A stretch of DNA of 29,765 bases from Patescibacteria group bacterium. GTDB lineage: Bacteria > Patescibacteriota > Minisyncoccia > Phycocordibacterales > UBA1006. Below, piece after piece: positions 143 through 29,105 of the stretch (its first letter is position 1; every line of letters begins with the position of its first letter). The notes beneath the pieces were generated by a model. The model made no database searches, was not told where the DNA came from, and saw only the letters and a program-made list of their open reading frames with translations. The DNA is taken from positions 1-29,765 of the forward strand of contig JAGQMO010000011.1 in the NCBI GenBank assembly GCA_020428615.1, in the 5' to 3' direction. Made by a program: the position numbers and the translations under genes.

Positions 143-187
143 TGAATCCTAGTAATGTGTGAACGCAATGTGGTACGATTACGATGT

Positions 188-1153
188 ATGATATTATTCT
201 GGATTATTATTTTTGCAGTGAGTCTCTTTGGACTCATCAAATCAGCTGATTACTTCACCGAATATAGCGAGAAAATTGGTTTAGCACTCGGTATGAGTTC
301 ATTTATTGTTGGTGCAACCATTGTGGCAATTGGAACCTCGTTGCCTGAACTCGTCTCTTCCCTCTTTGCACTCGGGGCAGGCACCACTGAATTCGTAGCC
401 GACAATATTATCGGTTCAAATATTGCGAATGCCCTCTTGATCTTGGGAATTGCGGGTGTGGTTGCAAAAAAGGGATTAAAAATAAACACGTCTCTCATTG
501 ATGTTGATTTGCCATTTTTCTTCATGTCGATGGCAGTATTTGGATACTTTGCGCTTGATAAAACCATATCGCTCGTAGAAGGAGTTGCTTTGTTGGCATT
601 TTTCCTCGTCTTCATCATGTACAGTATCAAATCAGAACCCGGAGCAAACGACAAAGATGAAATGGCGGACATTACCAAACACAACAAAAACGGAAAACAC
701 TCCAAACACATGGTCAAATATATCGGTATTATTCTGGTGAGCGTTGCGGTGCTTGCCCTGTCGGCAAAGTACCTCATTGACAGTATTCTCTCTCTCTCTG
801 AATTGTTGAAAATCTCTTCTTCAACACTTACTATAACAGTCGTTGCGTTTGGGACTTCGTTACCTGAGATTCTCACCTCAATTGCAGCTGTGAAACGAGG
901 AAATCACGGTATGGCCATTGGAAACGTATTGGGCTCGAATACCTTTAACGTTCTCCTTATCGCGGGACTACCAGCAGTCATCAAACCACTCGCAATCGAT
1001 CCAACAACATTCGTCATTGGTCTTCCATTTCTTGTCATGGCAACGTTCATTGCTATCTTCGTTATGTTCGACAACCACATTAGACGTTGGGAAGGTGTTG
1101 CTATGCTGTTCTTCTATGCCGTATTTATTGGAAAGATCGTTGGCCTCATGTAA
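188..1153 (+). CDS. Calcium/sodium:proton antiporter, CaCA/YrbG family (321 aa)
   Basis: Two alpha-repeat motifs (GTSLPEL...GSNIAN and GTSLPEI...GSNTFN) and about 10 TM segments. Start moved to ATG 188 (MILFWII), which follows TG-G-TACGAT-N8. Confidence 0.9.
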   Translation: MILFWIIIFAVSLFGLIKSADYFTEYSEKIGLALGMSSFIVGATIVAIGTSLPELVSSLFALGAGTTEFVADNIIGSNIANALLILGIAGVVAKKGLKINTSLIDVDLPFFFMSMAVFGYFALDKTISLVEGVALLAFFLVFIMYSIKSEPGANDKDEMADITKHNKNGKHSKHMVKYIGIILVSVAVLALSAKYLIDSILSLSELLKISSSTLTITVVAFGTSLPEILTSIAAVKRGNHGMAIGNVLGSNTFNVLLIAGLPAVIKPLAIDPTTFVIGLPFLVMATFIAIFVMFDNHIRRWEGVAMLFFYAVFIGKIVGLM

Positions 1154-1180
1154 AAACCATTCTTAAACGAATGGTTTTTA
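1151..1180. terminator. Bidirectional intrinsic terminator between convergent genes
   Basis: Inverted repeat TAAAAACCATTC / GAATGGTTTTTA overlapping both stop codons. Confidence 0.75.
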
Positions 1181-1855
1181 TAATGAGAGAATAAATTTCT
1201 CAATATCAATATCAAGTGTTGAATACGTATCACGATTATGAAACATGTGTGCGAGTCCTCGTGCCATATTCTGCACTTCAGTTGATGTGAAATGTCTCGC
1301 ATACCCTGAGGTTTTTTTATAGACAAAAGGATTCATACCAGGGTTTGTATTCGAACCGTGAACGAGAGCAAGGTTTTTGATCTGCCAAAACAAAATACCA
1401 TGAATTTCCTCAGGACTGCCGTTTTTGAGTGCTTCCTGAAAAAGGAGCCATAGTTTTTTCTTGTCTCGTGCGCCAAGAGCGTCAGTCAACGAGAACATAT
1501 TGAACGATTCTGTTTTCATTTTCTCCTCTTTGCCAAAGTCTTCTATGATTGCATTTACTTTTTCAAATGCTTTGAGAATGGGTTTAGTGATACTTTCCTC
1601 AGAGAAAACGAACACATTATCGGATTCTGCAAACTCAGCAAGAAAACTTTTCAAATCAAGATTTCGGGCAAGATCGTGAATAACGTACAATTCCTTGTCG
1701 CCAAAGAGCCCCGTTTGTGTTTGAACAATATCGGTGAGCTCGCGATCCGCAATGTCGTTATCGTACACATGCTGAGGAGTAACAGTGTATTGTTTGACGA
1801 GTTGTAGAACGTAGTCTTTGCGATGATCAGATTTTCCCGAGAGGAGGTAGAGCAT
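1178..1855 (-). CDS. holA: DNA polymerase III delta subunit, short CPR-type HolA (225 aa)
   Basis: N-terminal MLYLLSG, a GLFG...LYVI motif, and a C-terminal domain F.L.DA...RDKKK...EE..GIL.WQ...L typical of delta subunits. ATG 1855 follows TATACT-N6. Confidence 0.7.
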   Translation of the reverse strand: MLYLLSGKSDHRKDYVLQLVKQYTVTPQHVYDNDIADRELTDIVQTQTGLFGDKELYVIHDLARNLDLKSFLAEFAESDNVFVFSEESITKPILKAFEKVNAIIEDFGKEEKMKTESFNMFSLTDALGARDKKKLWLLFQEALKNGSPEEIHGILFWQIKNLALVHGSNTNPGMNPFVYKKTSGYARHFTSTEVQNMARGLAHMFHNRDTYSTLDIDIEKFILSL

Positions 1856-1888
1856 ACGTAAAGTATAAAGTGACACGTTACAAGCGTC

Positions 1889-1917
1889 TAGTCCCCCACA
1901 TTCATGTGGCGGGATTA
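1889..1917. repeat. REP-like imperfect GC-rich palindrome
   Basis: TAGTCCC-CCACA ttca TGTGG-C-GGGATTA. It is separate from the terminator at 1935-1963 and resembles the sequence at 11531-11545. Confidence 0.45.
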
Positions 1918-1934
1918 CAAGTTTTGGAAAGAAA

Positions 1935-1963
1935 AAAGGCGGAAAGCAAAGCTTTCCGCCTTT
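1935..1963 (-). terminator. Intrinsic terminator of the 1984-2784 gene
   Basis: 13-bp perfect stem AAAGGCGGAAAGC / GCTTTCCGCCTTT with a T-tract on the minus strand. Confidence 0.8.
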
Positions 1964-2915: not shown

Positions 2916-5279
2916 ATGTTCCCCATGCGAAGAGTGCACAACAAGCGGAACAGGTGAATCGTATTTCAAGTATGAGCTTTTCAATATATCTTCCATGATA
3001 CGCTCAGCGTTTTTTGAGAACTCTTGTACGAAACTATCATTCACCTCGTAGATAATCTCGTCATGAATTTGAAGAATCAGCTTTGCGTCTAGTTTCTTTT
3101 TTTCCTCTTCAAGCCATGCGTTGATGTGTACCATAGCGAGCTTTGTAATATCGGCATTCGTTCCTTGAATTGGAGCATTCAATGCCATGCGTTCCGCCAT
3201 CGCACGAATGAAACCGAGTTTCGAGTTAATATTCTTGAACTGACGCTTTCTACCAAAGAGCGTTTTTGTGAATCCATGTTTGCGTGCATGTTCTTTTGTC
3301 GCTTCAAGGTACGCGGTTGCCTTTGGAAACTGAGTGAAAAATCCGTTGTAGAATTTCTCTGCTTCTGCTCTATCAGTTCCCATTTCACGTTTTACTGAAT
3401 TAATTCCCATGCCGTAGAGAATACCGAAGTTCACAATCTTTGCTTTTCGGCGCATTTCTCGATCAACATCTTTGACCGAAACTCCACCAATGAGAGCAGC
3501 AACTGCCGCGTGAATATCCTCACCATCTTGGAAAATCTTTATCAACGCTTCATCACCTGAGAGCATGGCCAAACACCTGAGCTCAATCTGCGAATAGTCG
3601 AGCGAAACGAGTTTGTGACCTTTTTCCGCAATAAATCCTTCGCGAATTTTTCGTCCGAGATCGGTTCGCGTTGGAATATTCTGCATGTTGGGATTGCGAG
3701 ACGAGAATCGTCCTGTTACGGTTCCGTTTTGCAGAAACTCTGCATGGAGGCGTCCGTCATTCCCCACCATTCCAGGAATATTGTCGATGTATGTTGAGAG
3801 GAGTTTGTCGAGTTCTCGGTACTCAATAATGAGCGGAATGATTTCGTGCTGATCTTCAAGTTTGTTCAGTGTCTTAATATCTGTCGAATACGCGCCTGTT
3901 TTTGATTTCTTAATTCCTTTAGTCGGTAAACCCATGTTTTCAAATAACACTACTGAAAGCTGTTTGGGTGATTTTATATTGAACTCCGATCCTGCGAGCG
4001 TGTGAATCTGCTGTCCGAGTTTATCGAGTTCACGGTGATAATTTTTCGAAAGCTGAGCAAAAAACGGTTGATCAATCATAATCCCATTTTTCTCCATATC
4101 AGCTGTTACGGAGATGAGCGGTTCTTCAATATGTGCAAATACCTGTGCATCCTCAGAATCCTCGTTTAACTGTTGTTCAATGATTTTTGTGGCATCATCC
4201 AATGATGTTGTTTTTGTATACAATAAGATATCTTCGAAGCTTGCGTCTGTTTTGTCTGAATCAATCAGCCACAACTGAATCGCTGTTCTCTTGATGTCCC
4301 CAACATGTACAGGTTCCGATTCTTTCTTTTCTCCTTCAGATGTCTGCACCAATCCAGAGAGACCAAGGGAAAGCTCCAGTCTCTGTGGGAGCGAGCGAAG
4401 TTCGTATTTTTCAAAAATATTCAACGCTTGAGGTGTATCAACAGCATCTTTCCACGAGTGTTCAGGCAATTCAAACACAATCGGCGCATCATGTCGAATG
4501 GTAGCAATCACCTTCGAGAACTCGGCCTCTTCTTTGCCTTCTCTCATCAAATTCACCATGCGTTTGGTCAATCCAATATCAAGGAGCGCCTGGTCGTTCT
4601 TATCAAGCGCAGTGTACATATTCTCAATTGTACCGAACGCCGCAATAGCAAGAGTTGCGGCTTTGTCTCCAATACCCTTGATACCGGGAATGTTATCGGA
4701 CGGATCACCACGGAGTGCCTTGTAGTCAATGATCGACAACGGCGGAAAACCAAATCGTTCAATAACGCTAGATTCATCATACGTAACCGTATCGTTCAAA
4801 CCTCGTTTGAGGGTGTAGACTTGTACTCGTTTTTTATCAACGAGCTGAAGCGTATCCATGTCCCCCGAGGCGATGAGTACTTGGAGTTTTTTATGGTCTT
4901 TTAGTTGAGTTGCAATAGTCCCCAAAATATCATCCGCCTCAAATCCAGGAGCATCATAGATAGGGATCGCAAACGCTTCACAAATATCTCGAGTAGCATC
5001 AAACTGCATAACGAGCGCTTCATCAGTTTCACTGCGACTTCCCTTGTAGTCTTCAAAAGCTTCGTGTCTAAACGTAGCGCCTGGTAAATCATAGCAAGCG
5101 ACAATGTAATCAGGTTGAAACTCATCAATAATTTTTAAGACCATGGTTGCAAAACCGTAAATAGCACCAGTTGGCCTGCCATCGCTCGTTGTAAAGTCAG
5201 GCATAGCGTGATAAGCGCGATGAATGATTGCATGTGCATCAAGCAAAACCAGAAGTTGTTTCTTGGAATCTCGATTCAT
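2898..5279 (-). CDS. polA: DNA polymerase I (793 aa), 5'-3' exonuclease plus polymerase, proofreading domain vestigial
   Basis: LLDAHAIIHRAYHA, EADD and GDPSDNIPGIKGIG (5' nuclease). TGRFSSRNPNMQNIP, DYSQIELR, K..NFGILYG and QIHDE (Pol A motifs). ATG 5279 follows TG-G-TATACT-N6. Confidence 0.97.
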   Translation of the reverse strand: MNRDSKKQLLVLLDAHAIIHRAYHAMPDFTTSDGRPTGAIYGFATMVLKIIDEFQPDYIVACYDLPGATFRHEAFEDYKGSRSETDEALVMQFDATRDICEAFAIPIYDAPGFEADDILGTIATQLKDHKKLQVLIASGDMDTLQLVDKKRVQVYTLKRGLNDTVTYDESSVIERFGFPPLSIIDYKALRGDPSDNIPGIKGIGDKAATLAIAAFGTIENMYTALDKNDQALLDIGLTKRMVNLMREGKEEAEFSKVIATIRHDAPIVFELPEHSWKDAVDTPQALNIFEKYELRSLPQRLELSLGLSGLVQTSEGEKKESEPVHVGDIKRTAIQLWLIDSDKTDASFEDILLYTKTTSLDDATKIIEQQLNEDSEDAQVFAHIEEPLISVTADMEKNGIMIDQPFFAQLSKNYHRELDKLGQQIHTLAGSEFNIKSPKQLSVVLFENMGLPTKGIKKSKTGAYSTDIKTLNKLEDQHEIIPLIIEYRELDKLLSTYIDNIPGMVGNDGRLHAEFLQNGTVTGRFSSRNPNMQNIPTRTDLGRKIREGFIAEKGHKLVSLDYSQIELRCLAMLSGDEALIKIFQDGEDIHAAVAALIGGVSVKDVDREMRRKAKIVNFGILYGMGINSVKREMGTDRAEAEKFYNGFFTQFPKATAYLEATKEHARKHGFTKTLFGRKRQFKNINSKLGFIRAMAERMALNAPIQGTNADITKLAMVHINAWLEEEKKKLDAKLILQIHDEIIYEVNDSFVQEFSKNAERIMEDILKSSYLKYDSPVPLVVHSSHGEHWGKLK

Positions 5280-5320
5280 ACACTCAGTATACCACGCGCA
5301 CAAACGCCAATTGACCCTGT

Positions 5321-5752
5321 TTATATAAAGGAAATTGTTCGCGTATGGTCGCTGTTGAGTTGTAATTTAATACGAAGAACATCTGGCAGTTCAATACCAG
5401 AAACTTTTTCAGGCCATTCAAAACAAATGAGTGTTTCAGGATCGTCAATGATTACATTCCAACCAAGATGTTCGAGGTCTGTTTTGTTTTCAAGTCTGTA
5501 CGCATCAATATGAACGAGACGTCTCACCCACGCATGACTCGAAACAGTATATTCTTTCTGTATAACAAATGTGGGACTAGTAATAGGTTCAATAATACCT
5601 AGTTGTTTGGCAAGTTCTTGAACAAGTGCGGTTTTGCCAACTCCAAGATCCCCTGAGAGCGTAATAATGGTAGCTTGTTTTTTTTGTGGTAACGATAACA
5701 TATTGTCTTGTATCCAAATGGCAAGATCGTTAATGGTGCTGAGAGTCTTCAT
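5321..5752 (-). CDS. tsaE: tRNA t6A biosynthesis ATPase TsaE (143 aa)
   Basis: LSGDLGVGKT, SPTF, HIDAYRL and EWPE motifs. Start placed at MKTL (5752). Confidence 0.95.
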   Translation of the reverse strand: MKTLSTINDLAIWIQDNMLSLPQKKQATIITLSGDLGVGKTALVQELAKQLGIIEPITSPTFVIQKEYTVSSHAWVRRLVHIDAYRLENKTDLEHLGWNVIIDDPETLICFEWPEKVSGIELPDVLRIKLQLNSDHTRTISFI

Positions 5753-5780
5753 AATATTCAAACTATACCTGATGGTATCT

Positions 5781-9207: not shown

Positions 9208-9236
9208 ATATTAGCATATCATAATCATATTGTCAA
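9208..9236 (-). promoter_or_regulatory. Near-consensus sigma70 promoter for the surface protein
   Basis: TTGACA (9231-9236) - N17 - TAATAT (9208-9213), with extended TG. Confidence 0.75.
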
Positions 9237-10190: not shown

Positions 10191-10219
10191 AAAATATCAA
10201 CAAATCACGATATTGTCAA
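10191..10219 (-). promoter_or_regulatory. sigma70 promoter for paralogue A
   Basis: TTGACA (10214-10219) - N17 - TATTTT (10191-10196), with extended TG. Confidence 0.6.
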
Positions 10220-11461: not shown

Positions 11462-11490
11462 ATATTATCATATATAATACATTATGTCAA
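11462..11490 (-). promoter_or_regulatory. Near-consensus sigma70 promoter for paralogue B
   Basis: TTGACA (11485-11490) - N17 - TAATAT (11462-11467), with extended TG. Confidence 0.75.
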
Positions 11491-12446: not shown

Positions 12447-12474
12447 AATATACCAAAATATATAATATTGTCAA
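12447..12474 (-). promoter_or_regulatory. sigma70 promoter for the 281-aa lipoprotein
   Basis: TTGACA (12469-12474) - N16 - TATATT (12447-12452), with extended TG. The -35 sits inside the palindrome AATATTG-A-CAATATT. Confidence 0.6.
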
Positions 12475-12513: not shown

Positions 12514-14618
12514 GTGAGTGTATCGTGGTGTTCAATTTCTTCTCGGACACGCCGCAGTTTTTGAGAAGCATCCATGCTCGGGTTCTTTTTGGCATGTTCA
12601 TGTAACTCACCAAGATCATCCGCAAGGCGCGTAAAGGTTTTGTGTGTTTCGGCAAAATCTTCTCCGTCATCAAATATTGCTTCCGCTTGACCATATTTGA
12701 GAAGTTCTAAGATAGTTGTTTGTACTTCTCTAATATCATCCTTGATATCCCAGTCTGGATTTACCGTTTGTTTATGCTCAAGCTTTTTCAATCGATCAAT
12801 GAGCATCGAGAGTTCAACACTTTGTTTGGTTAGGAGCGCTCCTGGATTCATCGCCGGAGAATCAATAACTGGTGGTACGCTTTTTTTTTCTTGCAAAGTT
12901 GTTGTATGGTCGGTACCATCGGTATCATCAATCTCAAGATCAACTACTTTTTGTACTTCTTCAAAACTTGTCGTTCCATCAAGAATTTTAATTACACCGT
13001 CTTCCCGCATATTGAGTAATCCCTGTTTCTCAGCAACTTTTCGTACTTCTTGTTCAGAGGGTTTTTTGTTTAAAAGTGCTTCAATATGTTCATCGGTAAT
13101 AATGGCTTCAAACAATCCTACGCGGCCTTTGTATCCAGTCCCGTTACATTCTTTACATCCCTTACCTCGCGTGAGTGTAATTTGTTGGTCGGGGTTCAGC
13201 CCATATTCATGAAGTGGTTTGTTATTGTTCGCAGCTTCTCTCAAGATGGCTCGAATAATGCGTTCCTCTTCTTGGTTGGGATCCTCTTGTTCAGCGCAGT
13301 GTTTGCACACTCGCCTCACTAAACGTTGTGCAAGAGATACTGAGAGTGCAGCAGCAAGAATTTGAGGAGAAACACCAAGATCCAGGAGGCGCGGAATAAC
13401 CCCAGCGGCACCATTCGTGTGAAGGGTTGAAAATACCATATGTCCCGTGAGAGAAGCATTCACCGCAATATTTGCTGTTTCAGGATCTCGAATTTCCCCC
13501 ACCATGATAATATCAGGGTCTTGTCGCAACGCAGCTCGCAAACCTGAAAGAAAATCGTAACCTTTTTTACGATTTACTTGAGTTTGACTGATTCCCTCAA
13601 GGTGATATTCAATTGGATCTTCAATGGTGAGTATTTTCACATCAGGTGAGTACACCTTGCTCATGAATGAATAGAGAGTTGTGGTTTTACCCGAACCTGT
13701 TGGTCCCGTTGTTAAAATCATACCGTTTGGTTTTGCGATTTCCTTCATGAGAATTTCATACAAACGTGGCTCAATACCCAAATGCTCAACGCCCACTCGG
13801 ATATTATCTGGATTTAAGATACGCATCACAAACGATTCCCCATAGGCACTTGGAATAACCGATACGCGAACTTCAATTTCTTTATTGTCAAAATCAATAG
13901 TAAAACGTCCATCTTGAGCGTTCTCTGTTTGTGTCAATTTCATTTCAGATAATAACTTGATGCGAGAAAGGAGTTTTTTATAAGATTCATGATCAAATGT
14001 TGTAATATCTTGAAGCACTCCATCTTGACGAAAACGCAACCGTACCTGTTCGTCTTGCGACTCAATATGAACATCGGATGATTCGGTCGCAATCGCTCCC
14101 CCAAAAATCACCTCCATAAGTTCTGTTGTCTTTTTTACATCTTTATTGTTAATAACCTGAGAAATTTCATCAGCAATATCTTGATTTGTTTGAATTTCAT
14201 CAGCAATACGCTTGAGTTCATCGGTTGAAATATCAAGCATCCCTTCATGTGACGAGCGTGCATAGGAAACATCAGCATAACGTTCCCATGCTTTCTCTAG
14301 ACTGCGTGTTGAAACCAAATGGAGCCCGAGATTATAATCTTTCTCGAGTTTCGCAATGACCTTTTTCGTTTCAGGAAGATTGGGCGATTTAATTCCTACA
14401 TACAGGTCTTTTCCAACAATTTTAAAGGGGGCTACAAATGCACGCCGAGCTTCTTGTTCATCAAGCGTAGTGAGCGCGTCTGTTTCAATAGTCGTTCCGG
14501 TCAAATCAATGTATGGCAGTTTAAAACGTTCAGCAATGCGTTGCACGAACGATTCTTCTTCCTTTTTTCTAATTTCGTCTATCTTCTTCGCTTGTTTGGT
14601 GTTATCAAAGTCGACCAT
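12501..14618 (-). CDS. pilB: Type IV pilus assembly ATPase, PilB/GspE family, with C-terminal extension (705 aa)
   Basis: ASDVHIE-like ESSDVHIE, Walker A GPTGSGKTT, Asp box TIEDPIE, Walker B DPDIIMVGEIRD, His box STLHTN, and two CxxC motifs. ATG 14618 follows TATACT-N9. Confidence 0.85.
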   Translation of the reverse strand: MVDFDNTKQAKKIDEIRKKEEESFVQRIAERFKLPYIDLTGTTIETDALTTLDEQEARRAFVAPFKIVGKDLYVGIKSPNLPETKKVIAKLEKDYNLGLHLVSTRSLEKAWERYADVSYARSSHEGMLDISTDELKRIADEIQTNQDIADEISQVINNKDVKKTTELMEVIFGGAIATESSDVHIESQDEQVRLRFRQDGVLQDITTFDHESYKKLLSRIKLLSEMKLTQTENAQDGRFTIDFDNKEIEVRVSVIPSAYGESFVMRILNPDNIRVGVEHLGIEPRLYEILMKEIAKPNGMILTTGPTGSGKTTTLYSFMSKVYSPDVKILTIEDPIEYHLEGISQTQVNRKKGYDFLSGLRAALRQDPDIIMVGEIRDPETANIAVNASLTGHMVFSTLHTNGAAGVIPRLLDLGVSPQILAAALSVSLAQRLVRRVCKHCAEQEDPNQEEERIIRAILREAANNNKPLHEYGLNPDQQITLTRGKGCKECNGTGYKGRVGLFEAIITDEHIEALLNKKPSEQEVRKVAEKQGLLNMREDGVIKILDGTTSFEEVQKVVDLEIDDTDGTDHTTTLQEKKSVPPVIDSPAMNPGALLTKQSVELSMLIDRLKKLEHKQTVNPDWDIKDDIREVQTTILELLKYGQAEAIFDDGEDFAETHKTFTRLADDLGELHEHAKKNPSMDASQKLRRVREEIEHHDTLTKAK

Positions 14619-14658
14619 ACTGACAACAGTATACAACAGACGACTTTTAAATGATATG

Positions 14659-15002: not shown

Positions 15003-15043
15003 ATATTAGTGAGGGGAAGTTACAAATAAGGTATACTGGGGGC

Positions 15044-16012
15044 ATGTCAGATATACCAGTAACTCAACTTCTTGATCCTCAGCTTCGTCCTACAACGTGG
15101 GATGAATATATTGGACAGCAATCAATCAAAGATAATCTACACATTCTTTTGACAGCTGCAGCTCAAAGAAACCAACAACCCGAGCATATCTTATTCTACG
15201 GGCCACCAGGTCTCGGAAAAACAACCCTCGCCCACCTTATCGCAAAGGAAATGAATACTGCCATTAAAATCACTTCCGGTCCGGCTATCGAGAAAGTTGG
15301 CGATCTTGCCAGTATTCTCACAAATTTATCACAGGGAGATATTTTATTTATCGATGAAATTCATCGATTGAATACTAATATTGAAGAAGTTCTCTACCCT
15401 GCTATGGAATCAGGGGTGCTCGACATCATCATAGGAAAAGGACCCTCAGCACGCACGATACAGCTCGATCTGCCACCGTTTACCTTGATTGCAGCAACAA
15501 CAAAAATCGCTATGCTTTCAGCTCCGTTGCGCTCTCGCTTCTCTGGAGGAACCTTTAAACTTGAATTCTACACCCAAGAAGAAATGGAAAACATCATCAA
15601 TCAATCTGCAGGCAAACTAGGAATTCGCATTACCGATGGGGGTGTTCATGCAATTGCGAGTCGTAGTCGAGCAACTCCACGTACCGCAAATTATTTCTTG
15701 AAACGAGTCCGAGATTATGCTGAGGTACACAGTCGTGAAATTGATGAAGAAACTGTTCTCGAAGCGCTCAATATGATTGGGGTTGATGAGCTCGGGTTGC
15801 GACAAACTGATCGCAATGTCCTCTTGGCAATTATCGAAAAATTCAACGGCGGACCGGTTGGAGTAAAAACCATCGCAACCGCCACACATGAGGAGATTGA
15901 TTCAATCGAATCAGTCATCGAACCCTACCTCATCCAGAGAGGTCTCATCGAACTCACTCCTCGAGGTCGCGTAGCTACACAAAAAGCATACACTCATTTT
16001 GATAGAGGATAA
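15044..16012 (+). CDS. ruvB: Holliday junction branch migration helicase RuvB (322 aa)
   Basis: LRP..WDEYIGQ, GPPGLGKTT, FIDEIHRL and GPSAR motifs. ATG 15044 follows TATACT-N6. Confidence 0.97.
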   Translation: MSDIPVTQLLDPQLRPTTWDEYIGQQSIKDNLHILLTAAAQRNQQPEHILFYGPPGLGKTTLAHLIAKEMNTAIKITSGPAIEKVGDLASILTNLSQGDILFIDEIHRLNTNIEEVLYPAMESGVLDIIIGKGPSARTIQLDLPPFTLIAATTKIAMLSAPLRSRFSGGTFKLEFYTQEEMENIINQSAGKLGIRITDGGVHAIASRSRATPRTANYFLKRVRDYAEVHSREIDEETVLEALNMIGVDELGLRQTDRNVLLAIIEKFNGGPVGVKTIATATHEEIDSIESVIEPYLIQRGLIELTPRGRVATQKAYTHFDRG

Positions 16013-17779: not shown

Positions 17780-17819
17780 TTTTGCAAATATGAAACTTTA
17801 CTCATGTTATAATCAAGTA

Positions 17820-18290
17820 ATGAAAGAACGTCATAAAGCTGTACCAGCAAGTTATCTCATTTTAAAAAATGACAATAACATTTTACTTGGTCACAGAATT
17901 AATACTGGATACTACGATAATTATTGGGGAGTACCTGCTGGACATGTTGAAGAAGGCGAACTTCCTATCGATGGGCTCGTACGAGAGGTGCGCGAAGAAG
18001 TTGGTATCGAACTAAATCGAGAAACCATACAACTCGCCCATGCAATGTACCGAACAAAACATGACCCTACAGGTGATCGGGTTGACTATTTCTTTACTGC
18101 TTCTGATTATACTGGTGAGATAACAAACATGGAACCACACAAATGTAGTGAGTTACAATGGTTTAATATTGATGATCTACCTGAAAATATTATGGATCAC
18201 GTAAGGGTAGGAATAGAGTACTACAAAGAGGGTGTTGTGTACTCGGAGCTCGGAATTGACGAAGTTGTTCAAAACCCTAACATTCGTTAG
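17820..18290 (+). CDS. NUDIX hydrolase (156 aa)
   Basis: Nudix box GHVEEGELPIDGLVREVREEVGI and NMEPHKC. ATG 17820 follows TG-T-TATAAT-N6. Confidence 0.92.
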   Translation: MKERHKAVPASYLILKNDNNILLGHRINTGYYDNYWGVPAGHVEEGELPIDGLVREVREEVGIELNRETIQLAHAMYRTKHDPTGDRVDYFFTASDYTGEITNMEPHKCSELQWFNIDDLPENIMDHVRVGIEYYKEGVVYSELGIDEVVQNPNIR

Positions 18291-18293: not shown

Positions 18294-18322
18294 TTGCAAC
18301 TCAAAACTAAGAACTATACACT
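18294..18322 (+). promoter_or_regulatory. Promoter for yebC, near-leaderless
   Basis: TTGCAA (18294-18299) - N17 - TACACT (18317-18322) - N8 - ATG. Confidence 0.6.
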
Positions 18323-18330
18323 ACCGGTAT

Positions 18331-18858
18331 ATGTCAGGACACAATAAATGGTCAAAAATTAAACACAAAAAAGCAGCGACCGATGCTCAGAAATCAAAGA
18401 TTTTCGGTAAACTCGTGCGCCTCATTCAAGTTGAGGCGAAAAAGTGTGGCGGGGATGTAAACTCGCCTGGTCTTGCGGCAGCGATTGCAAAGGCAAACAA
18501 GGAAAACATGCCAAAAGACAACATTGAACGAGCTATTAAAAAAGCTGCTGAATCAGGCGATAGTATCTCAGTTATGTATGAAGCGTATGGGCCAGGGGGT
18601 GTCGGGCTCATCATTACAGGACTTACCGATAACACCAATCGAACGAGTGCTGAGATTAAACACACGTTGTCAAAGATGAATGGGTCTCTCGGTAGTTCTG
18701 GTTCAGTATCTTGGAATTTTACGCAAAATGAAGAACGTGATTGGATTCCAAACAGCACAGTTGAAATTAATGATGAAATTGCAGCGAAACTTGAAACACT
18801 CATAGAGGCACTTGAAGAACATGATGATGTGCAAGATGTGTACCATAACGCAGAATAA
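18331..18858 (+). CDS. yebC: YebC/PmpR family protein, internally shortened (175 aa)
   Basis: MSGHNKWSKIKHKK, YEAYGPGGV, TDN.NRT and DDVQDVYHN motifs. Confidence 0.93.
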   Translation: MSGHNKWSKIKHKKAATDAQKSKIFGKLVRLIQVEAKKCGGDVNSPGLAAAIAKANKENMPKDNIERAIKKAAESGDSISVMYEAYGPGGVGLIITGLTDNTNRTSAEIKHTLSKMNGSLGSSGSVSWNFTQNEERDWIPNSTVEINDEIAAKLETLIEALEEHDDVQDVYHNAE

Positions 18859-18884: not shown

Positions 18885-21758
18885 TTACAACTGGAGAGTG
18901 AATGATATTTCTTCACTCGACTTGATACCATTTTCGTCGGTCACAATCACTCTCATAAGGTTATTCTCATCGTAGTATTGGAGTTCTTCAGGAACAAAAT
19001 TCAAAGTAAACGGGGCACGATCATCGCTTCCAACAAAAGCATTATTAACGAAGAATTGAACATTTTCAATCTCACTATTAGATCGGTCATCACTCTTAAT
19101 GCCTACTTCTATTGGTTCATTAAATGCGTAACGCAGTGTTTCATCAATTCCGGTAATGCTAAAACGAAAGTTTTCAGTATTATCAACTGTATGAATGTCA
19201 TCGTAGTCTGTCGGAAGCGGAATATCAATGTTGAGAATAGTTTGGAGATTTTCTTGAACGTACTGCCGAACTCCATACTCCCAATTTTCATATTGGGGAT
19301 CATCATGTGATTCATTCAACACGGTCGGATCATTTTTATTAATCCAATGAAGAATGGTATGTGGGTTTGGTTGCGGAACAGCCAACTTTGTTTCTTCAGG
19401 AGTAAAATCAGTAGCTAATTTTCCGGAAACAGTATCAATATACACTGTTGTTCCTCCATACCAATCCCCCTTAATCATATTTGGATAGGTATTAAAGTTC
19501 TCTGGCAAATCATACGCTTGGAACGATTCATTGTCGTAATTTTTAATGATCTCGTTCATAAAGGCACGCCACGGCTTTCCTGAAATAGATGAACCCTTCT
19601 TCATCGGTGTATTGTCGTTGTTTCCTGTCCACACACCCACAGCAACTTGCGGAATATAGCCAATCAACCAGGCATCTCGATTATCGTTAGTCGTTCCTGT
19701 TTTACCAGCGACATCACGTTCGCCGAAGTACAAGAAAGATTGTGCACCAAAGAGAGGGGTTCTCGCAACATTATCTGAGAGAATACTATTTACCATGCGA
19801 GCAGCATTGTTATCAAGTACTCGCTCTTCATTTGATTCAAACTTTTCAAGAACATTCCCATTTAAATCAGTAACCTCAAGAATACCTGTCGGTTTATTGT
19901 ACACTCCGTCATTGGCAAAAACCGTATAAGCGCTCGTCATTTCAAGGAGCGACACCTCTCCTCCTCCGAGTACCAATCCAAGCCCATAGTAATCGGCAGG
20001 TTGGTCTAACGAAGTGATTCCCATATCGCGAGCTTTTGCAATAACATTCCCAAGTCCGGCTAGATAATTTACCTTAATTGCTGGAATGTTCCTCGATTGA
20101 GCGAGGGCATTTCTAAAGGTAAGAGGCCCTTTGAAATCGAAATCATAGTTATTTGGCGAATAACATCCGTTGTCACTTGTCGTGTCGTCAGCTCGACAAC
20201 GCGCGTTAAACTGTGTCTCAACATCAAAGATTGTGCTTTCAGGCAAATACCCTCGCTCAAATGCTGTTGCGTATGCGATTGGTTTAAATGATGATCCTGG
20301 CTGTCGTGGTGCAAGCGCAACATTAAAGTTACCGTCAAACTCTTCAGTATCAAAATAATCACGAGAACCAACCATGGTGAGAATTTGCCCTGTACCGGAT
20401 TCAATAGCTACGAGCGCAGCATTTGAAGCACTGTAGAGTTCTTCGACTTCCTGAATGTGATCTCTAATAATTTCTTCAGCTTGTTGTTGTAATTTATAAT
20501 CGAGAGTTGTAATCACCTGGAGCCCTCCATTTTCAACCATATCTGTTCCGTACGTTTCTTCAAGTTGTGCACGGATATACTGAACAAAGTGGAGTGATTT
20601 TGCATAGTTATTCTCTTCGGGAAGAAATTCCACCTGTTCATTCAGTGCCGAGCGATATTCATCCTCAGAAATAAATCCGTAGCGTTTCATTTCTCCGAGT
20701 ACGACTTTTTGACGTTGGTCGAGTTTGTCTCGATGTGGTCCATAGGGTGAGTAATAGGTAGGTAGATTCGGGATTGAAGCAAGGTACGCAGATTGCGCTA
20801 GAGAAAGTTCTGATGCGGGAATACCAAAGAATCTCTTTGATGCCTCTTCAATACCATAAATAGTTCCTCCGTAAGGGGCTTCGTTGAGGTATATTTCAAG
20901 AATTTCATCTTTTGTGAGACGTTTCTCAATTTTGTACGCAAGAACCCATTCTTTTACTTTTCGCGTAATGCGTTTGTCTTTATTGAGGAGGGTGTTTTTT
21001 ACAACCTGTTGGGTTAACGTTGACCCCCCTGCTGTCCCACCACTCCTTAAACCAAGTTTGTACAGAAGTGTCTGGAAAGCGCCCCGAATGGTTGATTTCC
21101 ATACCACCCCATTATGTTCATAGAACGTATGATCCTCAATAGCAACAATCGCGTCTTTTGCAGACTGTGCGATACTGTCAAAATCGACAACGGTTCTTTG
21201 AATATTTTCGTGAATATCATACAAAAGTATCTCGCCAGTACGATCGTAGATCTTTGTAGAGTTTGATATTTTACGATTCTCAAAATTTTGAATGCTTGGT
21301 ATTTGTAGTGTAGCCACCCAGATAAAAAATAGTCCAGAACCTATGAGAAATAATATTCCTAAGGTCAACAAAAGTCTCCTGAAAGACCATCGCTTGTTGT
21401 GCTCGTGCAAACGATGTTTGCGAGTATGTTGGGCATATTTTTTTAATGGTGTTTTTTTCATAATGGGATAAATGATTGTATCGAGGAACGCATACCATGC
21501 TTTTTGAAGCCAATACTGTGTATTCATAATAATTAACTCAAAAATTGTTTTTGCAACGAGTGCCCACTCTTTCAATAGAGACCACACATCCATACAGAAC
21601 CGATGCAAGACTTTTTTTACACTCAGGTGGTCTTGATTTTTTCTGATGCGTCTCATATCACGTAATCTCATATAACGTTTGTGTTTCTTTGCAAGTAAAC
21701 GCTGGCGTTTCAAATATGCACGAGTATGCCGAATATGTGGTTGTTTCGGGTCAAACAT
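18885..21758 (-). CDS. Class A penicillin-binding protein, bifunctional transglycosylase/transpeptidase (957 aa)
   Basis: GT motifs AIEDHTFY, GGSTLTQQVVKN and RKVKE. TP motifs SSFK, SRN and KTG. C-terminal Ig-like domain (VQFFVN..FVG.DD.APF). ATG 21758 follows TATAAT-N6. Confidence 0.93.
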   Translation of the reverse strand: MFDPKQPHIRHTRAYLKRQRLLAKKHKRYMRLRDMRRIRKNQDHLSVKKVLHRFCMDVWSLLKEWALVAKTIFELIIMNTQYWLQKAWYAFLDTIIYPIMKKTPLKKYAQHTRKHRLHEHNKRWSFRRLLLTLGILFLIGSGLFFIWVATLQIPSIQNFENRKISNSTKIYDRTGEILLYDIHENIQRTVVDFDSIAQSAKDAIVAIEDHTFYEHNGVVWKSTIRGAFQTLLYKLGLRSGGTAGGSTLTQQVVKNTLLNKDKRITRKVKEWVLAYKIEKRLTKDEILEIYLNEAPYGGTIYGIEEASKRFFGIPASELSLAQSAYLASIPNLPTYYSPYGPHRDKLDQRQKVVLGEMKRYGFISEDEYRSALNEQVEFLPEENNYAKSLHFVQYIRAQLEETYGTDMVENGGLQVITTLDYKLQQQAEEIIRDHIQEVEELYSASNAALVAIESGTGQILTMVGSRDYFDTEEFDGNFNVALAPRQPGSSFKPIAYATAFERGYLPESTIFDVETQFNARCRADDTTSDNGCYSPNNYDFDFKGPLTFRNALAQSRNIPAIKVNYLAGLGNVIAKARDMGITSLDQPADYYGLGLVLGGGEVSLLEMTSAYTVFANDGVYNKPTGILEVTDLNGNVLEKFESNEERVLDNNAARMVNSILSDNVARTPLFGAQSFLYFGERDVAGKTGTTNDNRDAWLIGYIPQVAVGVWTGNNDNTPMKKGSSISGKPWRAFMNEIIKNYDNESFQAYDLPENFNTYPNMIKGDWYGGTTVYIDTVSGKLATDFTPEETKLAVPQPNPHTILHWINKNDPTVLNESHDDPQYENWEYGVRQYVQENLQTILNIDIPLPTDYDDIHTVDNTENFRFSITGIDETLRYAFNEPIEVGIKSDDRSNSEIENVQFFVNNAFVGSDDRAPFTLNFVPEELQYYDENNLMRVIVTDENGIKSSEEISFTLQL

Positions 21759-21792
21759 ATTTGTATTATACATTCTCAGTATCTTTTACAAA

Positions 21793-22284
21793 CTAAACAC
21801 CTAACTCATGTTCAGTATTTTTATACAAAGCAAAAAATGTCAAACCGATCGCAATTGCGTCAATTTCGTCATCTAATTTTTTACCTTTTCCAAGATCAAT
21901 GAGACGAGATACCATAGTGTAGACATCTATCTTTGAGGCCTTCCCATAACCTGTTACCGCCACCTTGATTTGATTTGGAGTGTACTCATAGACGGGAATA
22001 TCCGCATCAATTGCTTGAAAGATCACTACTCCGCGTGATTCACTCACCTTGAGCGCTGTTTTGGTATTTTTGGAGAAAAAAAGGTCTTCAACAGCGATTG
22101 CGTCAGGTTGATAAGAACTAATGAGCTCTCGTACTCGATTACCAATGAGTCCAAGTCGTTCCGGAAATGGTAGGTCGTTTCTTGTTTGATAACACTCAGA
22201 ATATAGAAGGGTTTCTTTTTTATTTTTTTCAATCACAGCCAACCCAAGCCGGTCATATCCGGGATCAACAGACAAAACTTTCAT
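21793..22284 (-). CDS. ruvC: Crossover junction endodeoxyribonuclease RuvC
   Basis: VDPGYDRLG, AVEDLFF, RGV, YTP..IK.AVTGYG.A.K and DDEIDAIAI motifs. Confidence 0.96.
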   Translation of the reverse strand: MKVLSVDPGYDRLGLAVIEKNKKETLLYSECYQTRNDLPFPERLGLIGNRVRELISSYQPDAIAVEDLFFSKNTKTALKVSESRGVVIFQAIDADIPVYEYTPNQIKVAVTGYGKASKIDVYTMVSRLIDLGKGKKLDDEIDAIAIGLTFFALYKNTEHELGV

Positions 22285-22286
22285 GA

Positions 22287-22538
22287 TTATATAATATCAT
22301 GAACAGATACATTCCTCTTTTGTGCTTCACGGATGATGTTATTTTTATTGAGTGTGATATGAAATTTTTTTTGCGGTGAGAGATTAACAATAAACAAGGT
22401 GCTCTTTTGTAAAGAAAGGTTGTGAACGCTTATATCTGGAATATATCCCTGTAATATTTGAACTAAAACATATTCAGGGGTTGTGCTTTTTTGTTGTTCA
22501 AAATTCTTTTTAAGGTATTTTCCAATATTAAAATCCAT
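22287..22538 (-). CDS. Small protein, possible DciA/DUF721-like helicase loader (83 aa)
   Basis: Tightly packed between dnaN and ruvC. The segment LSLQKSTLFIVNLSPQKKFHITLNKNNII resembles the DciA KH-like core. Call rests on position and pattern only. Confidence 0.45.
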   Translation of the reverse strand: MDFNIGKYLKKNFEQQKSTTPEYVLVQILQGYIPDISVHNLSLQKSTLFIVNLSPQKKFHITLNKNNIIREAQKRNVSVHDII

Positions 22539-23645: not shown

Positions 23646-23876
23646 AATTTGATAGATAGTTTTTAAAATATTATTAGTATTACTATTAGGTTTGTTAGTT
23701 GTGTGGATTTCTTATTATCACCTTTTATTTCTTTGTTTTTTAGGTGTTTCATTGTGTATATGTGATGGTATGTGTATTGAATAAGTAATGAGTATTACAC
23801 AATCACTCTAATACAATATTTATTTTACACAAACTATTAACAATATATTAAGAAGTTATCCAATACGTTTTACACA
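23646..23876. other. oriC, unwinding part between dnaA and dnaN
   Basis: AT-rich gap with DnaA-box-like 9-mers at 23702 (TGTGGATTT), 23753 (TGTGTATAT), 23793 (TATTACACA), 23823 and 23868 (TTTTACACA), plus a 7x TAN trio array at 23669-23689. Confidence 0.75.
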
Positions 23877-25222: not shown

Positions 25223-25253
25223 AGGATAGAAGATATCCATAGTATAGTATGAA

Positions 25254-25302
25254 TGTGGATAAAAGTGAAAACTGTGCACAACATACATATCATTGTGGAT
25301 AA
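25254..25302. promoter_or_regulatory. DnaA boxes upstream of dnaA
   Basis: Perfect TGTGGATAA at 25254-25262 and 25294-25302, and a degenerate TGTGCACAA at 25273-25281. Confidence 0.85.
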
Positions 25303-25405
25303 ACATACCCACTATATCTTAATAGTTTGAATAAGAAAATCTTGATTATTTTTACAGTTATACTAGTATAGTCCTATTACTATCTTTGTAATTCTATCTA
25401 TTACT

Positions 25406-25552: not shown

Positions 25553-25557
25553 TTCTT

Positions 25558-25590
25558 AACAAAAATCCTTTTAAAAAGAGGATTTTTGTT
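25558..25590 (+). terminator. Hairpin between rpmH and rnpA
   Basis: 12-bp inverted repeat AACAAAAATCCT / AGGATTTTTGTT. Confidence 0.6.
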
Positions 25591-25603
25591 ATATACCAAT
25601 GGT

Positions 25604-25945
25604 ATGTTTTCTAAACAGCAACGGTTAAATTCTCGTGCAGTTAACAGAATAATTATAGGTAAACATCGTTTTTTTACTTCGTGCTTTAGGGTTCATTTTG
25701 AACCTGCGGATGCTTTTCGTGTTGCTCTTATCATTCCAAAGAAAATAATTCCGAAACGTGTCATGAGAAGCCGTCAAAAGAGACGAATACTTCACGTATT
25801 AAAAAGTTTTGTAAACAACATTTCGCCATCAACTTGTCATATATTACTCATACTCCAAAAAAATACCCAAGACGTATCTTTCGTTGATCTTGAAAAGGAA
25901 GTAGAATTAGTGATTCAAAAATTACCCACTTCCGATAAAATTTGA
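25604..25945 (+). CDS. rnpA: Ribonuclease P protein component (113 aa)
   Basis: MFSKQQRL start, RVALIIPKK, an RNR-like helix VMRSRQKRR, and canonical rpmH-rnpA-yidC synteny. Confidence 0.8.
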   Translation: MFSKQQRLNSRAVNRIIIGKHRFFTSCFRVHFEPADAFRVALIIPKKIIPKRVMRSRQKRRILHVLKSFVNNISPSTCHILLILQKNTQDVSFVDLEKEVELVIQKLPTSDKI

Positions 25946-25960
25946 TACAATCCTTCCTAT

Positions 25961-26683
25961 ATGATTACTCTTTGGAACATTATTTTTTATAAACCTCTTT
26001 ACAATGCTCTCGTGTGGCTTGTTGATATCTTGCCCAATCATTCTTTGATTATTGCGGTAGTTATTTTAACGATCCTTGTTCGACTTATTATTTCACCTCT
26101 GTCTTATAAGGCGTTGAAAACTCAGATTCAGACAAAAGCGTTGCAACCAAAACTGAAAACACTTAAAGAAAACGTTACTGATAAACAAGAACAAGCTCGT
26201 CAAACGTTTGCTCTGTACAAGGAACACGGTGTTAATCCATTTTCAAGCTTTCTGGTTATTCTCGTACAATTTCCAATTATCCTTGCGTTGTACTGGGTAT
26301 TTCGAGATGGTGGAGTTGAGATAGACCCCACACTCCTTTATTCGTTTGTACCAAGACCAGATACTATTGTTAACACCATGTTTGGTTTTGATCTCGCTAA
26401 CAAGAGTTATGTACTGGCATTACTTACCGGATTAACCCAATATATACACCTTTCACGGTCTGCAAGTTTCAAACAAAGCGCTACACACGACAAACAAACA
26501 GATCAGGAAAAAATGATGGCTATGCTTGGAAAGTCAATGAGATATACCATGCCAATTATGATTACTATTTTTGCTTATATTATTGGAGGAGCTGTAGCAT
26601 TGTATTGGGTGACCTCCAACACCTTCATGATTGTTCAAGAGTGGTATATTCAGAGACGTTTGGCAAAAAAACAGATTGTTTAA
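25961..26683 (+). CDS. yidC: Membrane protein insertase YidC/Oxa1, short form (240 aa)
   Basis: LTILVRLII.PL, LQPKLK, L.KEHGVNPF, QFPI and LYWVTSN motifs. Confidence 0.95.
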   Translation: MITLWNIIFYKPLYNALVWLVDILPNHSLIIAVVILTILVRLIISPLSYKALKTQIQTKALQPKLKTLKENVTDKQEQARQTFALYKEHGVNPFSSFLVILVQFPIILALYWVFRDGGVEIDPTLLYSFVPRPDTIVNTMFGFDLANKSYVLALLTGLTQYIHLSRSASFKQSATHDKQTDQEKMMAMLGKSMRYTMPIMITIFAYIIGGAVALYWVTSNTFMIVQEWYIQRRLAKKQIV

Positions 26684-26693: not shown

Positions 26694-26736
26694 GTTTGGG
26701 ATGGTGTGTACGGGTTTATGATATACTGAAGGTATT

Positions 26737-27201
26737 ATGGATATCCACATACTCACAAAAGAAGCAGAAACAATTCTTACCATGATGGATATCCACGTTA
26801 AGGATATTTCAGTTTCCACAGACCCTGATTTGCGCATTACTGTACTCAGTATTCGAATTTCTGGAACCGACCAAGAGATTTTTACAGAACAACACAATAC
26901 CCTTACCCGTGATTTTAGCTTGATTTTAAAGATTATTCTCGAGAAAAAACATCACTATTACAAAGATGTTGTGGTTGATATTAATGGTGATAATCAAAAA
27001 CTCATAGATTATACAAAAGAAAAAGCGGCTATTGCAGTTGAACGTGTTCGTTTTTTTGACAAACCGTATGAATTTGGCTACCTCAATGCCTACGAACGTA
27101 TGTTGATTCATCATTACTTTAAAAATATCCCTGAGCTCATCACAGAGTCTTCCGGAGAAGGGAAAGACAGACGCCTCACGGTTAAGAAAAAACAATCCTG
27201 A
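26737..27201 (+). CDS. Jag/KhpB (EloR)-like KH-R3H RNA-binding protein, short (154 aa)
   Basis: VVVDING, R3H motif LNAYERMLIHH and TESSGEGKDRRL; located after yidC. Confidence 0.85.
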   Translation: MDIHILTKEAETILTMMDIHVKDISVSTDPDLRITVLSIRISGTDQEIFTEQHNTLTRDFSLILKIILEKKHHYYKDVVVDINGDNQKLIDYTKEKAAIAVERVRFFDKPYEFGYLNAYERMLIHHYFKNIPELITESSGEGKDRRLTVKKKQS

Positions 27202-27215
27202 TAGAGGGTTGTTTT
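27189..27215. terminator. Bidirectional terminator between jag and the VirB4-like gene
   Basis: AAAACAATCCT / AGGGTTGTTTT stem (one G-U pair), overlapping both stops. Confidence 0.65.
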
Positions 27216-29064
27216 AGTTTGCAAATGAATTACTCTCTTGCGATTGTTTGAATTCCTCACGTGCTTTCTTTATAGAAAGCACCTGTGCTGGATCAGATGT
27301 TATTACCTGGTCTTCGGTATATGAAGCGATAATTTTGATTGCGACATGTTTGAGACCAGCAAAGAATATCCCTTCTCCTACATTCGATTCAATAAGAAGA
27401 TATTTTTCTTCATCGGTGAGTCTGAAAATTTCTTGAAGATTGTCGATAGCACTCGGTGATTGTTTTAACAAGAGTTGCATGGATGAGTTTGTAATAATAG
27501 GGATGCCATAACGCGATTTAATAAAGTCGCCAACATCTTGGGTGATTGTCGCAAGTCCCAGGAAGTATTTACGCCCACGTTTTGCAATCATAAACAAGAA
27601 CGAGGCGGTATCGTCTGATTTCATCATCCACCAAGCTTCATCAACCACCAAAAGACGTTTCTTAATATCTTTTCTTACAGCGTTCCAAATAAATTGAGTG
27701 ATAATATACATTGCAGCCGGTTTCAATTCGTCTTCCATATCTCTAATTGAAAAGACAACCAACTTTTTATTGATATCAACGTTTGAGGGTTTGTTAATAA
27801 AGCCGGCCCATGTTCCGCGAGTATATTTTGTTAAACGTGTTAAGAGTGACTCACTGCCCTCGACTGATGATAATACCATTTCAAAGTCTGACATGAGCGG
27901 AGGTTCAATGTTTGCATAGTCGGCGCTCGGTGTGATGTCTTTGAGTGCATACGTTTCGGTAATTGCACGATCAATCAGAGAATCTTCCTCAGGAGAAAGA
28001 CCGCCAAGCATAATCCGGAATAAGCCAACCAGATGAATAATATGTGTACGAAGAACATCAGCAGGATCTTCATCTTCAAGAGGTCTTGGAACATCAAATG
28101 GATTGATGTGGTGTTCTGATGACAGTGAAATGTTAAAGTATCGCCCTCCAACAGCTTCAGCAAGATACTCATATTCGCGTTCAGGGTCAATAACGATCAC
28201 TTCGGTATCGAACATCATGGTTCTTAGAATTTCAAGTTTTGTGGCGTAAGATTTACCTGCTCCTGAAGTTGCAAAAATAACGGAGTTGTAATTCGGTAAA
28301 GAGTATCGGTCAAAAATAACCAAACCAGAATTGTGTCTGTTGATACCGTATAAAATTCCTTTGTTGTCGGTCAATTCTGAGGAAATAAAAGGAAAGAATG
28401 ATGAAACAGGACCTGTATTCAGTTTGGTATGCACTTGAAGTTTGTCTTGCCCGATCGGTGCAACCGACAAGAAACCTTCCATTTGTTGAAAGAGCGCGGG
28501 TTTAAGGTATACCAGTTTTGATTCCAAGAGAGAACGTATTTCATTTTCTGTTTTAAAGAGCTCGTCTTCATCATCAGCATAAATTGTGATGTACAATCCC
28601 ACAGAAAATATTTTTTCTTGTGCTTGTTGTAGTGCATCACGTAGTGATTCAAGGTCTCGGTATGCGGTATCTAAAATAGGATCTCGTACTAGACCTTTTG
28701 ATTCTCGGGTATTTATTTGCGATTGTACCTCTGCAACTTTTTTCTTGAATTCAGAGAGTATTTTTTCTGTTGGTATTGGATGAATATGAATACCAACATC
28801 AAACACCTTGTCGAGATTAACAATAGGAGCAAGCCATCCATCACTCAGAAAACGTGGATATGACATGACAAAGAATGTACGTGAGGTTTTTCCTGCGATT
28901 TTTATTGATTTTGAGCTTACCTCAAGAGCAGCTGGAGCCAGAATATCTTGAAGTTGCAGTTTTGCAGTACGATAAATTTCTCCCGGCAAGACCGGCACTG
29001 CTGTTTTTTTTGTAACACCCTTTTTGTTTTTTGATGTTCCTATCAGATCTGAAAGCAATGACAT
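27214..29064 (-). CDS. VirB4/TraE-like P-loop ATPase (616 aa)
   Basis: N..IFATSGAGKS Walker A, VIDPEREY, HINPFD, LLVVDEAW, KRGRKY and ITQDV.DF motifs. ATG 29064 follows TATACT-N9. Confidence 0.85.
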   Translation of the reverse strand: MSLLSDLIGTSKNKKGVTKKTAVPVLPGEIYRTAKLQLQDILAPAALEVSSKSIKIAGKTSRTFFVMSYPRFLSDGWLAPIVNLDKVFDVGIHIHPIPTEKILSEFKKKVAEVQSQINTRESKGLVRDPILDTAYRDLESLRDALQQAQEKIFSVGLYITIYADDEDELFKTENEIRSLLESKLVYLKPALFQQMEGFLSVAPIGQDKLQVHTKLNTGPVSSFFPFISSELTDNKGILYGINRHNSGLVIFDRYSLPNYNSVIFATSGAGKSYATKLEILRTMMFDTEVIVIDPEREYEYLAEAVGGRYFNISLSSEHHINPFDVPRPLEDEDPADVLRTHIIHLVGLFRIMLGGLSPEEDSLIDRAITETYALKDITPSADYANIEPPLMSDFEMVLSSVEGSESLLTRLTKYTRGTWAGFINKPSNVDINKKLVVFSIRDMEDELKPAAMYIITQFIWNAVRKDIKKRLLVVDEAWWMMKSDDTASFLFMIAKRGRKYFLGLATITQDVGDFIKSRYGIPIITNSSMQLLLKQSPSAIDNLQEIFRLTDEEKYLLIESNVGEGIFFAGLKHVAIKIIASYTEDQVITSDPAQVLSIKKAREEFKQSQESNSFAN

Positions 29065-29105
29065 GTTATGTACAGTATACTACATACTCTTTTCTTTTAT
29101 AAGAA

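Follow-up and report, generated by a model that had tools for sequence, protein, structure and literature searches.

Positioned -10 promoter boxes and probable leaderless expression in a Patescibacteria genome without an anti-Shine-Dalgarno sequence

Genome and locus

The window, which is the whole stretch of DNA analysed here (29,765 nucleotides, nt), is the entire contig C52 and the longest contig in the metagenome-assembled genome (MAG) of a very small, uncultured bacterium from wastewater (Parcubacteria, candidate phyla radiation). The element in question is a TAnnnT hexamer placed 6-9 nt before the ATG of twelve core genes. The original prediction read these hexamers as -10 promoter elements that start transcription at the start codon or no more than about 3 nt from it, giving leaderless mRNAs without a Shine-Dalgarno (SD) site. 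The genome comprises 605,987 bp in 84 contigs, with 39.8% GC, the standard code, 92% completeness and 2.8% contamination. A search of sequencing runs places the window DNA in wastewater and activated-sludge DNA runs. Relatives of its RuvB belong to Parcubacteria and Paceibacteria MAGs labelled Nomurabacteria, Kaiserbacteria, Zambryskibacteria or Minisyncoccia.

The window contains a tRNA-Lys gene and about 24 long open reading frames (ORFs). These include dnaA, rnpA, yidC, jag, ruvB and ruvC without ruvA, polA, pbp1A, pilB, and a VirB4-like ATPase gene. Throughout, the strict box is TAYAVT, the loose box is TANNNT, and the gap is the number of nucleotides between the hexamer and the ATG, written N6, N8 or N9. 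The twelve sites are as follows, in window positions:

174..190, forward strand: Na/Ca-exchanger (antiporter), TACGAT-N8-ATG; a tandem TACGAT duplicate, the weakest of the twelve and not TAYAVT
1853..1867, reverse strand: holA-like gene, TATACT-N6-ATG; start 7 codons inside the longest ORF
5277..5294, reverse strand: polA, extended -10 TGgTATACT-N6-ATG; position 2 of the 5'-3' exonuclease profile at residue 10
5750..5767, reverse strand: tsaE, TATAGT-N9-ATG; A as the 7th base past the box, which suggests a 3-nt leader
14616..14633, reverse strand: pilB (T2SSE ATPase), TATACT-N9-ATG
15032..15046, forward strand: ruvB, TATACT-N6-ATG; start 21 codons inside the longest ORF, position 1 of the RuvB_N profile at residue 14
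17805..17822, forward strand: NUDIX hydrolase, extended -10 TGtTATAAT-N6-ATG
18294..18333, forward strand: yebC promoter, -35 TTGCAA, 17-nt spacer, -10 TACACT, N8, ATG (hexamer to ATG at 18317-18333); within the 3' end of the NUDIX gene
21756..21770, reverse strand: pbp1A, TATAAT-N6-ATG
25943..25963, forward strand: yidC, extended -10 TGaTACAAT-N9-ATG; begins directly past the rnpA stop codon
26719..26739, forward strand: jag (R3H/EloR-like), extended -10 TGaTATACT-N9-ATG
29062..29079, reverse strand: VirB4-like conjugal ATPase, TATACT-N9-ATG

All twelve predicted pairs of hexamer and ATG are present at the predicted spacing, and eleven match the stricter TAYAVT, the antiporter TACGAT being the exception. 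A GGAG-like word precedes the start in none of the twelve genes. The gene names proposed with the sites agree with Pfam and NCBIfam except for holA, which has no Pfam match and only a partial, sub-threshold NCBIfam match (48 bits, where the cut-off is 80).

Two further candidates were found in the window:

22282..22296, reverse strand: ruvC, TATTAT-N6-ATG; position 1 of the RuvC profile at residue 3
25587..25606, forward strand: rnpA, TGtTATATA box 8 nt from the ATG and directly past a hairpin and T-run

In relatives the rnpA box is TATAAT or TATACT, and the usual order is likewise hairpin, T-run and box. The VirB4-like ATPase (27214-29064, reverse strand) aligns to the CD1110-family model only from position 183 of the profile onwards. 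Its usual N-terminal part is missing, and the ORF upstream is unrelated. The start of dnaA (23870-25312, reverse strand) is ambiguous, as DnaA_N begins at residue 34 of the 478-residue reading and other ATGs lie at 25240 and 25222.

Position of the box across the genome

Counted on both strands of the 606-kb genome and with no gene calls, TAYAVT followed by ATG occurs 112, 83, 61, 53 and 57 times at gaps 6-10, compared with about 35 times at other gaps. An ORF of 100 codons or more begins at 77% of the gap-6 sites, compared with 14% of all ATGs. With multiple starts allowed, 186 of the 614 long ORFs have the strict box at gap 6-10; at five control offsets the number is 32-45. These box-linked genes number 74, 47, 26, 26 and 13 at gaps 6, 7, 8, 9 and 10, with the peak at gap 6, and 177 of the 186 starts (95%) are ATG, in line with the marked AUG preference of leaderless mRNAs. 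A third test uses the first ATG only, so that the motif plays no role in the choice of start. It finds the strict box at gap 6-9 in 137 of 595 ORFs, against 10.5 ± 3.0 in shuffled upstream regions (z = 42), and the loose box in 237 of 595, against 91.5 ± 8.5 (z = 17). The region from -12 to -15 is therefore strongly enriched in TAnnnT over both shuffled and offset controls, and the absence of enrichment that the original prediction had named as its refutation is not what the counts give.

AT-rich intergenic DNA combined with a free choice of start could produce apparent TAnnnT boxes, and the loose hexamer is indeed common, at 13-21% at control offsets, while the antiporter site is a weak tandem TACGAT. 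Such an artefact is refuted by the counts made without gene calls, the first-ATG shuffles and the offset controls, and the box is conserved across species. Of the explanations considered here it is the least credible, and is very nearly dismissed.

The view that the ORF track contains over-extended starts also extends to the whole genome: 82 of the 186 motif-linked starts lie downstream of the start of the longest ORF. The motif-linked starts are consistent with Pfam domain edges, as in YebC, which opens with MSGHNKW. Gene callers that expect SD sites will over-extend many starts in these genomes.

The box is not spread evenly over the genes. Genes that overlap a same-strand neighbour or lie less than 15 nt behind it make up 117 of 508 (about 23%), the distances being upper bounds because small genes were left out of the ORF set. 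The strict box occurs in 9 of these 117 packed genes (8%), which is the background rate, and in 41-59% of genes with spacers of 15-80 nt. Altogether, 159 of the 391 genes that are not packed behind a same-strand neighbour have it (about 40%), against a background of about 6%. Gene-by-gene expression, as originally proposed, is overstated for the genome as a whole, where the packed genes remain at background.

Promoter character of the hexamer

When the genes are aligned on the hexamer, the extended -10 TGn positions are T (56%) and G (56%), and a weak TTG appears at 17 nt upstream. Genes at gap 6 have a pyrimidine at -1 in 99% of cases, followed by the A of the ATG at +1. At gaps 8-9, position 6 after the box is a pyrimidine (62-81%) and position 7 a purine (69-77%). 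The usual start-site rule is a pyrimidine at -1 and a purine at +1. The pattern at gaps 8-9 suggests a transcription start 2-3 nt before the ATG, which would leave mini-leaders. The predicted transcription start site (TSS), at or no more than about 3 nt from the ATG, fits both signatures.

The same box occurs within 70 nt upstream of 13 of the 26 tRNA genes. In 6 of the 26, a TATAAT or TACAAT box lies 7-11 nt before the mature 5' end, and the precursors of such box-close tRNAs would have almost no 5' leader. The tRNA genes listed among the box-close set, by genome contig, are:

C1:554-627, tRNA gene
C18:3273-3347, tRNA gene
C54:24-97, tRNA gene
C77:3384-3456, tRNA gene
C80:126-200, tRNA gene

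The RNase P protein (window 25604-25945) and the RNase P RNA (contig C82) are both present despite the near-leaderless tRNA boxes. The 16S gene has TATAAT 17 nt before its 5' end (contig C37; region C37:1-160), and the primary sigma factor carries regions 1.1 to 4. The evidence supports the hexamers as sigma-70 -10 elements and not as ribosome sites; many are of the extended TGn type, and the -35 is weak.

A second promoter class stands before genes of exported or orphan surface proteins. It has a near-consensus TTGACA, a spacer of 16-17 nt and a TG-extended weak -10 (TAATAT, TATTTT), with leaders of about 25-150 nt and no SD. Its window positions, all on the reverse strand, are:

2816-2843, second-class promoter
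9208-9236, second-class promoter
10191-10219, second-class promoter
11462-11490, second-class promoter
12447-12474, second-class promoter

The impression from the window that leadered genes are those of exported proteins does not extend to the genome, where 21% of box-linked genes and 20% of the rest encode a signal-like N-terminus (Fisher p = 0.91).

Shine-Dalgarno sites and the 16S 3' end

SD-like words are not enriched among the ORFs of the genome: 142 genes have one at -16 to -4, and control offsets give 128-160. Such words are depleted over the 20 nt ahead of box-less starts (GGAG 4 against 11, GAGG 2 against 16). The leaders of box-less genes are also free of SD words, with 43-51% A at -14 to -3 and about 10% G.

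An Rfam search of the assembly for 16S gave no match. The rRNA operon is unassembled, and two 16S ends, C5:1-30 (3' tail) and C37:1-75 (5' end), were recovered at the edges of contigs by blastn with the rRNA loci of relatives. The 16S 3' end at the C5 edge is GGAUCAAUUCAAGG in place of GGAUCACCUCCUUA. After helix 45 this edge reads GGATCAATTCAAGG, with no CCUCC(U); past the helix-45 strand GGAAGCTGGTCGTGG, the sequence is ATCAATTCAAGG where the canonical one is ATCACCTCCTTA. The tail has AAUUCA at the position of CCUCC, and SD pairing is therefore impossible in this organism. The inspection for an anti-SD that had been proposed as a check thus finds CCUCC absent from the organism's own 16S, and it is likewise lost in all eight relatives of the order with a 16S 3' end read (four of the same genus and four others). 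All 30 other Patescibacteria 16S genes sampled retain CACCUCCUUUC, including one from the same class.

A search for the ribosomal protein uL1 (PF00687) was negative in the 92%-complete genome and matched in 14 of 14 control genomes, although absence from a MAG is not proof. bS21 was not found in the genome either, nor did it match in the controls from leaderless-rich groups (Thermus, Deinococcus and Corynebacterium). S1 is a short four-domain form of 356 residues, and IF3 and the RNase P RNA are present.

These observations bear on the proposal that the hexamer acts in the mRNA as a signal for translation, with the TSS further upstream. It would then be a non-SD ribosome motif, for instance an AU-rich sequence bound by S1 or one that pairs with the altered 16S tail. 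A lineage with no anti-SD needs another start signal, a four-domain S1 protein is present, and upstream regions are generally AU-rich. The TGn extension and the -35 spacing are, however, promoter-like, and the same box stands before tRNA and rRNA genes. Before operon-internal genes, the very ones most in need of a ribosome site, it falls to background. Against the organism's own 16S tail, upstream regions show no pairing advantage over shuffled or control sequence. A replacement SD matched to this tail was rejected on the same figures (-3.07 kcal/mol, against -3.23 for shuffled and -4.07 for control regions), and no complementary words are enriched. A translation signal is thus very improbable, and the promoter reading of the hexamer is preferred.

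Conservation in relatives

In nine loci of the same genus, TAnnnT stands 6-9 nt ahead of the yebC ATG (MSGHNKW), and most of the nine also have a TTG(C/T)A -35. A TGnTAnAAT-type box (TAnnnT) lies 5-11 nt before the yidC ATG in 28 of 29 loci across the order, while the flanking sequence is unconserved. For jag, TATACT or TATAAT is retained in 12 of 12 loci of the same genus, and is not found in other, more distant families. The claim that yidC and jag have their own -10, even though such genes normally lie inside operons, accordingly agrees with the sequence and with the kept position of the box in these loci. The 6-9 nt layout of ruvB is not conserved beyond the genus, as distant Parcubacteria do not have it. 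Many distant Parcubacteria ruvB loci have a conserved TAGCAT-like box about 11-14 nt before ATGTCAAG, with a conserved MSS start. This box may be a -10 that gives a leader of 5-8 nt, an arrangement unlike that of this genus.

The boxes could also be real but secondary or internal promoters, with expression coming mainly from leadered or polycistronic transcripts and leaderless translation being minor. Several boxes do lie within or directly past the gene before them (yebC, yidC), no hairpin resembling a terminator was called in the rnpA-yidC-jag intervals, and no RNA run was found for this DNA. The fixed distance from box to ATG across genus and order would be unexpected if only promoter activity mattered. 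Read-through without an SD would moreover give no obvious ribosome entry unless the genes were coupled, and the spacers of 15-80 nt are not tight coupling. Such a minor role is unlikely, though it is somewhat less improbable than a translation signal, and the reading as start-setting promoters is retained.

The spread of the layout was estimated by two counts. The first is the ratio of TAYAMT-N6-ATG to its reversed pattern in each genome. It is 6.1 in this genome, 2.1-7.5 in the same genus and 1.5-6.7 in the same order; among 120 other Patescibacteria it is commonly 1-2 by eye, with 4-12 in a few lineages. The second compares the strict box (gap 6-9) with SD-like words at first-ATG starts in samples of 68-80 kb, and the results are:

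This genome: strict box 25%, SD-like words 3% (control 5%)
Same-genus genome: strict box 26%, SD-like words 0%
Two anti-SD-less genomes of the order: strict box 14-15%, SD-like words not enriched
Six Patescibacteria outside the order (four with an anti-SD, two with the 16S 3' end unread): strict box 0-17%, SD-like words 7-39% (controls 0-6%)

Five of these last six genomes have the strict box in 10-17% of genes, even with SD sites retained. On these samples the layout is widespread in the phylum, and in this genus the top share goes together with a complete abandonment of SD sites. Leaderless expression may perhaps be a general trait of the phylum, with the SD-free state as its extreme.

Probable leaderless and near-leaderless expression

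The best explanation, at a probability of roughly 85%, is that -10 promoters set in position yield leaderless or near-leaderless mRNAs that are read without SD. A positioned promoter motif, its conservation in relatives, and the lack of both SD sites and an anti-SD are demonstrated at the level of sequence; the actual TSS positions and the mode of ribosome loading are what we infer. On this basis such mRNAs would serve about 40% of the unpacked genes and about 25-30% of the full gene set.

RNA polymerase would start on the A of the ATG at gaps 6-7 (about two thirds of cases), and 2-4 nt upstream of the ATG at gaps 8-10. The ribosome and initiator tRNA would then engage the 5'-terminal AUG directly, without SD pairing. 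The packed genes (about 23%, less than 15 nt behind the preceding gene) are probably translationally coupled in tight operons. The remaining unpacked genes without a box would use their A-rich, G-poor, SD-free leaders.

Several points weigh against this explanation. No RNA run was listed for the yebC gene, and the runs that contain the window are DNA runs. The signature at gaps 8-10 favours leaders of 2-4 nt over strictly leaderless RNAs, and additional upstream promoters may exist. The percentages are approximate, since the gene set consists of the analysis's own ORF calls (at least 90-100 codons). A generic scan of the window for TTGACA-N16-18-TATAAT gave no enrichment over shuffles (45 against 37; 43 against 49). 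This two-hexamer scan is uninformative because the -35 is weak, so that the -10 element and where it lies carry the case. Finally, the bin may be a mixture of strains, given a second YidC-like fragment (C22:2210-2794 of the genome contigs). It is 77% identical to the window YidC over residues 45-239, and could be a paralogue or lie on a contig of a related strain in the bin. On the concern of strain mixture, the box signal is equal in a near-complete genome of the same genus.

The base before the start codon

U at -1 is found in 63-81% of starts in every class, whether box-linked, leadered or coupled, and in 75% of coupled operon-internal genes. The controls are lower, with 34% for internal in-frame ATGs and 24% for all NATG. 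Elsewhere, some low-GC Patescibacteria have 57-75%, and higher-GC ones 16-46%. Window examples are:

17402, U at -1 of the ABC1 kinase gene (TAG-T-ATG)
25961, U at -1
26737, U at -1

U at -1 may pair with A37 of the initiator tRNA. The base could be an extended start-codon context, with a fourth base read by the initiator tRNA loop. A bolder and rather doubtful proposal is that the order has abandoned SD:anti-SD pairing wholly. It would use three SD-free routes, namely promoter-set 5'-terminal AUGs, tight operon coupling and A-rich leaders, with a common U before the AUG. If true, this lineage would offer a bacterial system, found in nature, for studying how starts are selected without SD and how an anti-SD can be lost.

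Comparison with known systems

Initiation on leaderless mRNAs is established in Mycobacterium, Deinococcus and archaea (summarised in PMC6028130). The nearest known type is group C of GeneMarkS-2, mainly Actinobacteria and Deinococcus-Thermus. There the first genes of operons have a Pribnow box 6-8 nt from the start, and leaderless expression is predicted for 25-50% of operons (Lomsadze et al. 2018, PMC6028130). The present genome resembles it in the -10 box at operon-first starts (here with the peak at gap 6), in the share of units (here 159 of 391) and in ATG-led 5' ends. Group C differs in keeping an anti-SD, and SD sites for its other genes (PMC6028130), whereas in this genome SD words show no enrichment and CCUCC is absent from the 16S tail. 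In further contrast to that group, this genome has 40% GC and 0.6 Mb, and its promoters are often of the extended -10 type.

Bacteroidota retain the anti-SD sequence. The box-less genes of this genome resemble those of the Bacteroidota non-SD group B in their A-rich, G-poor, SD-free upstream regions (PMC6028130). Group B, however, has one motif before all genes, including operon-internal ones, whereas here the packed genes lack the box and the box has promoter features. The group D archaea (Haloferax, Sulfolobus) are similar in that many mRNAs start at the AUG with little or no SD pairing, and differ in their transcription machinery and in a promoter box placed about 26 nt upstream (PMC6028130).

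A literature search found no report of leaderless mRNAs in Patescibacteria or the candidate phyla radiation, most subscription journals being outside its coverage. A Parcubacteria subgroup without an anti-SD, which overlaps the uL1-lacking group, was described by Tsurumaki et al. 2022 (RNA 28:1041, PMC9297842). That study gives no account of the mode of translation start and does not mention leaderless mRNAs. The present genome is like that subgroup, since here too the 16S 3' end is without CCUCCU and uL1 was not found. The expression architecture is of a known type, and the loss of the anti-SD in the subgroup is already published (PMC9297842). The interest lies in the fact that the layout occurs in, and helps explain, a bacterial lineage without an SD:anti-SD system. 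For about a third of the genes, promoters placed at the ATG offer an answer to the question of start finding left open by Tsurumaki et al. 2022.

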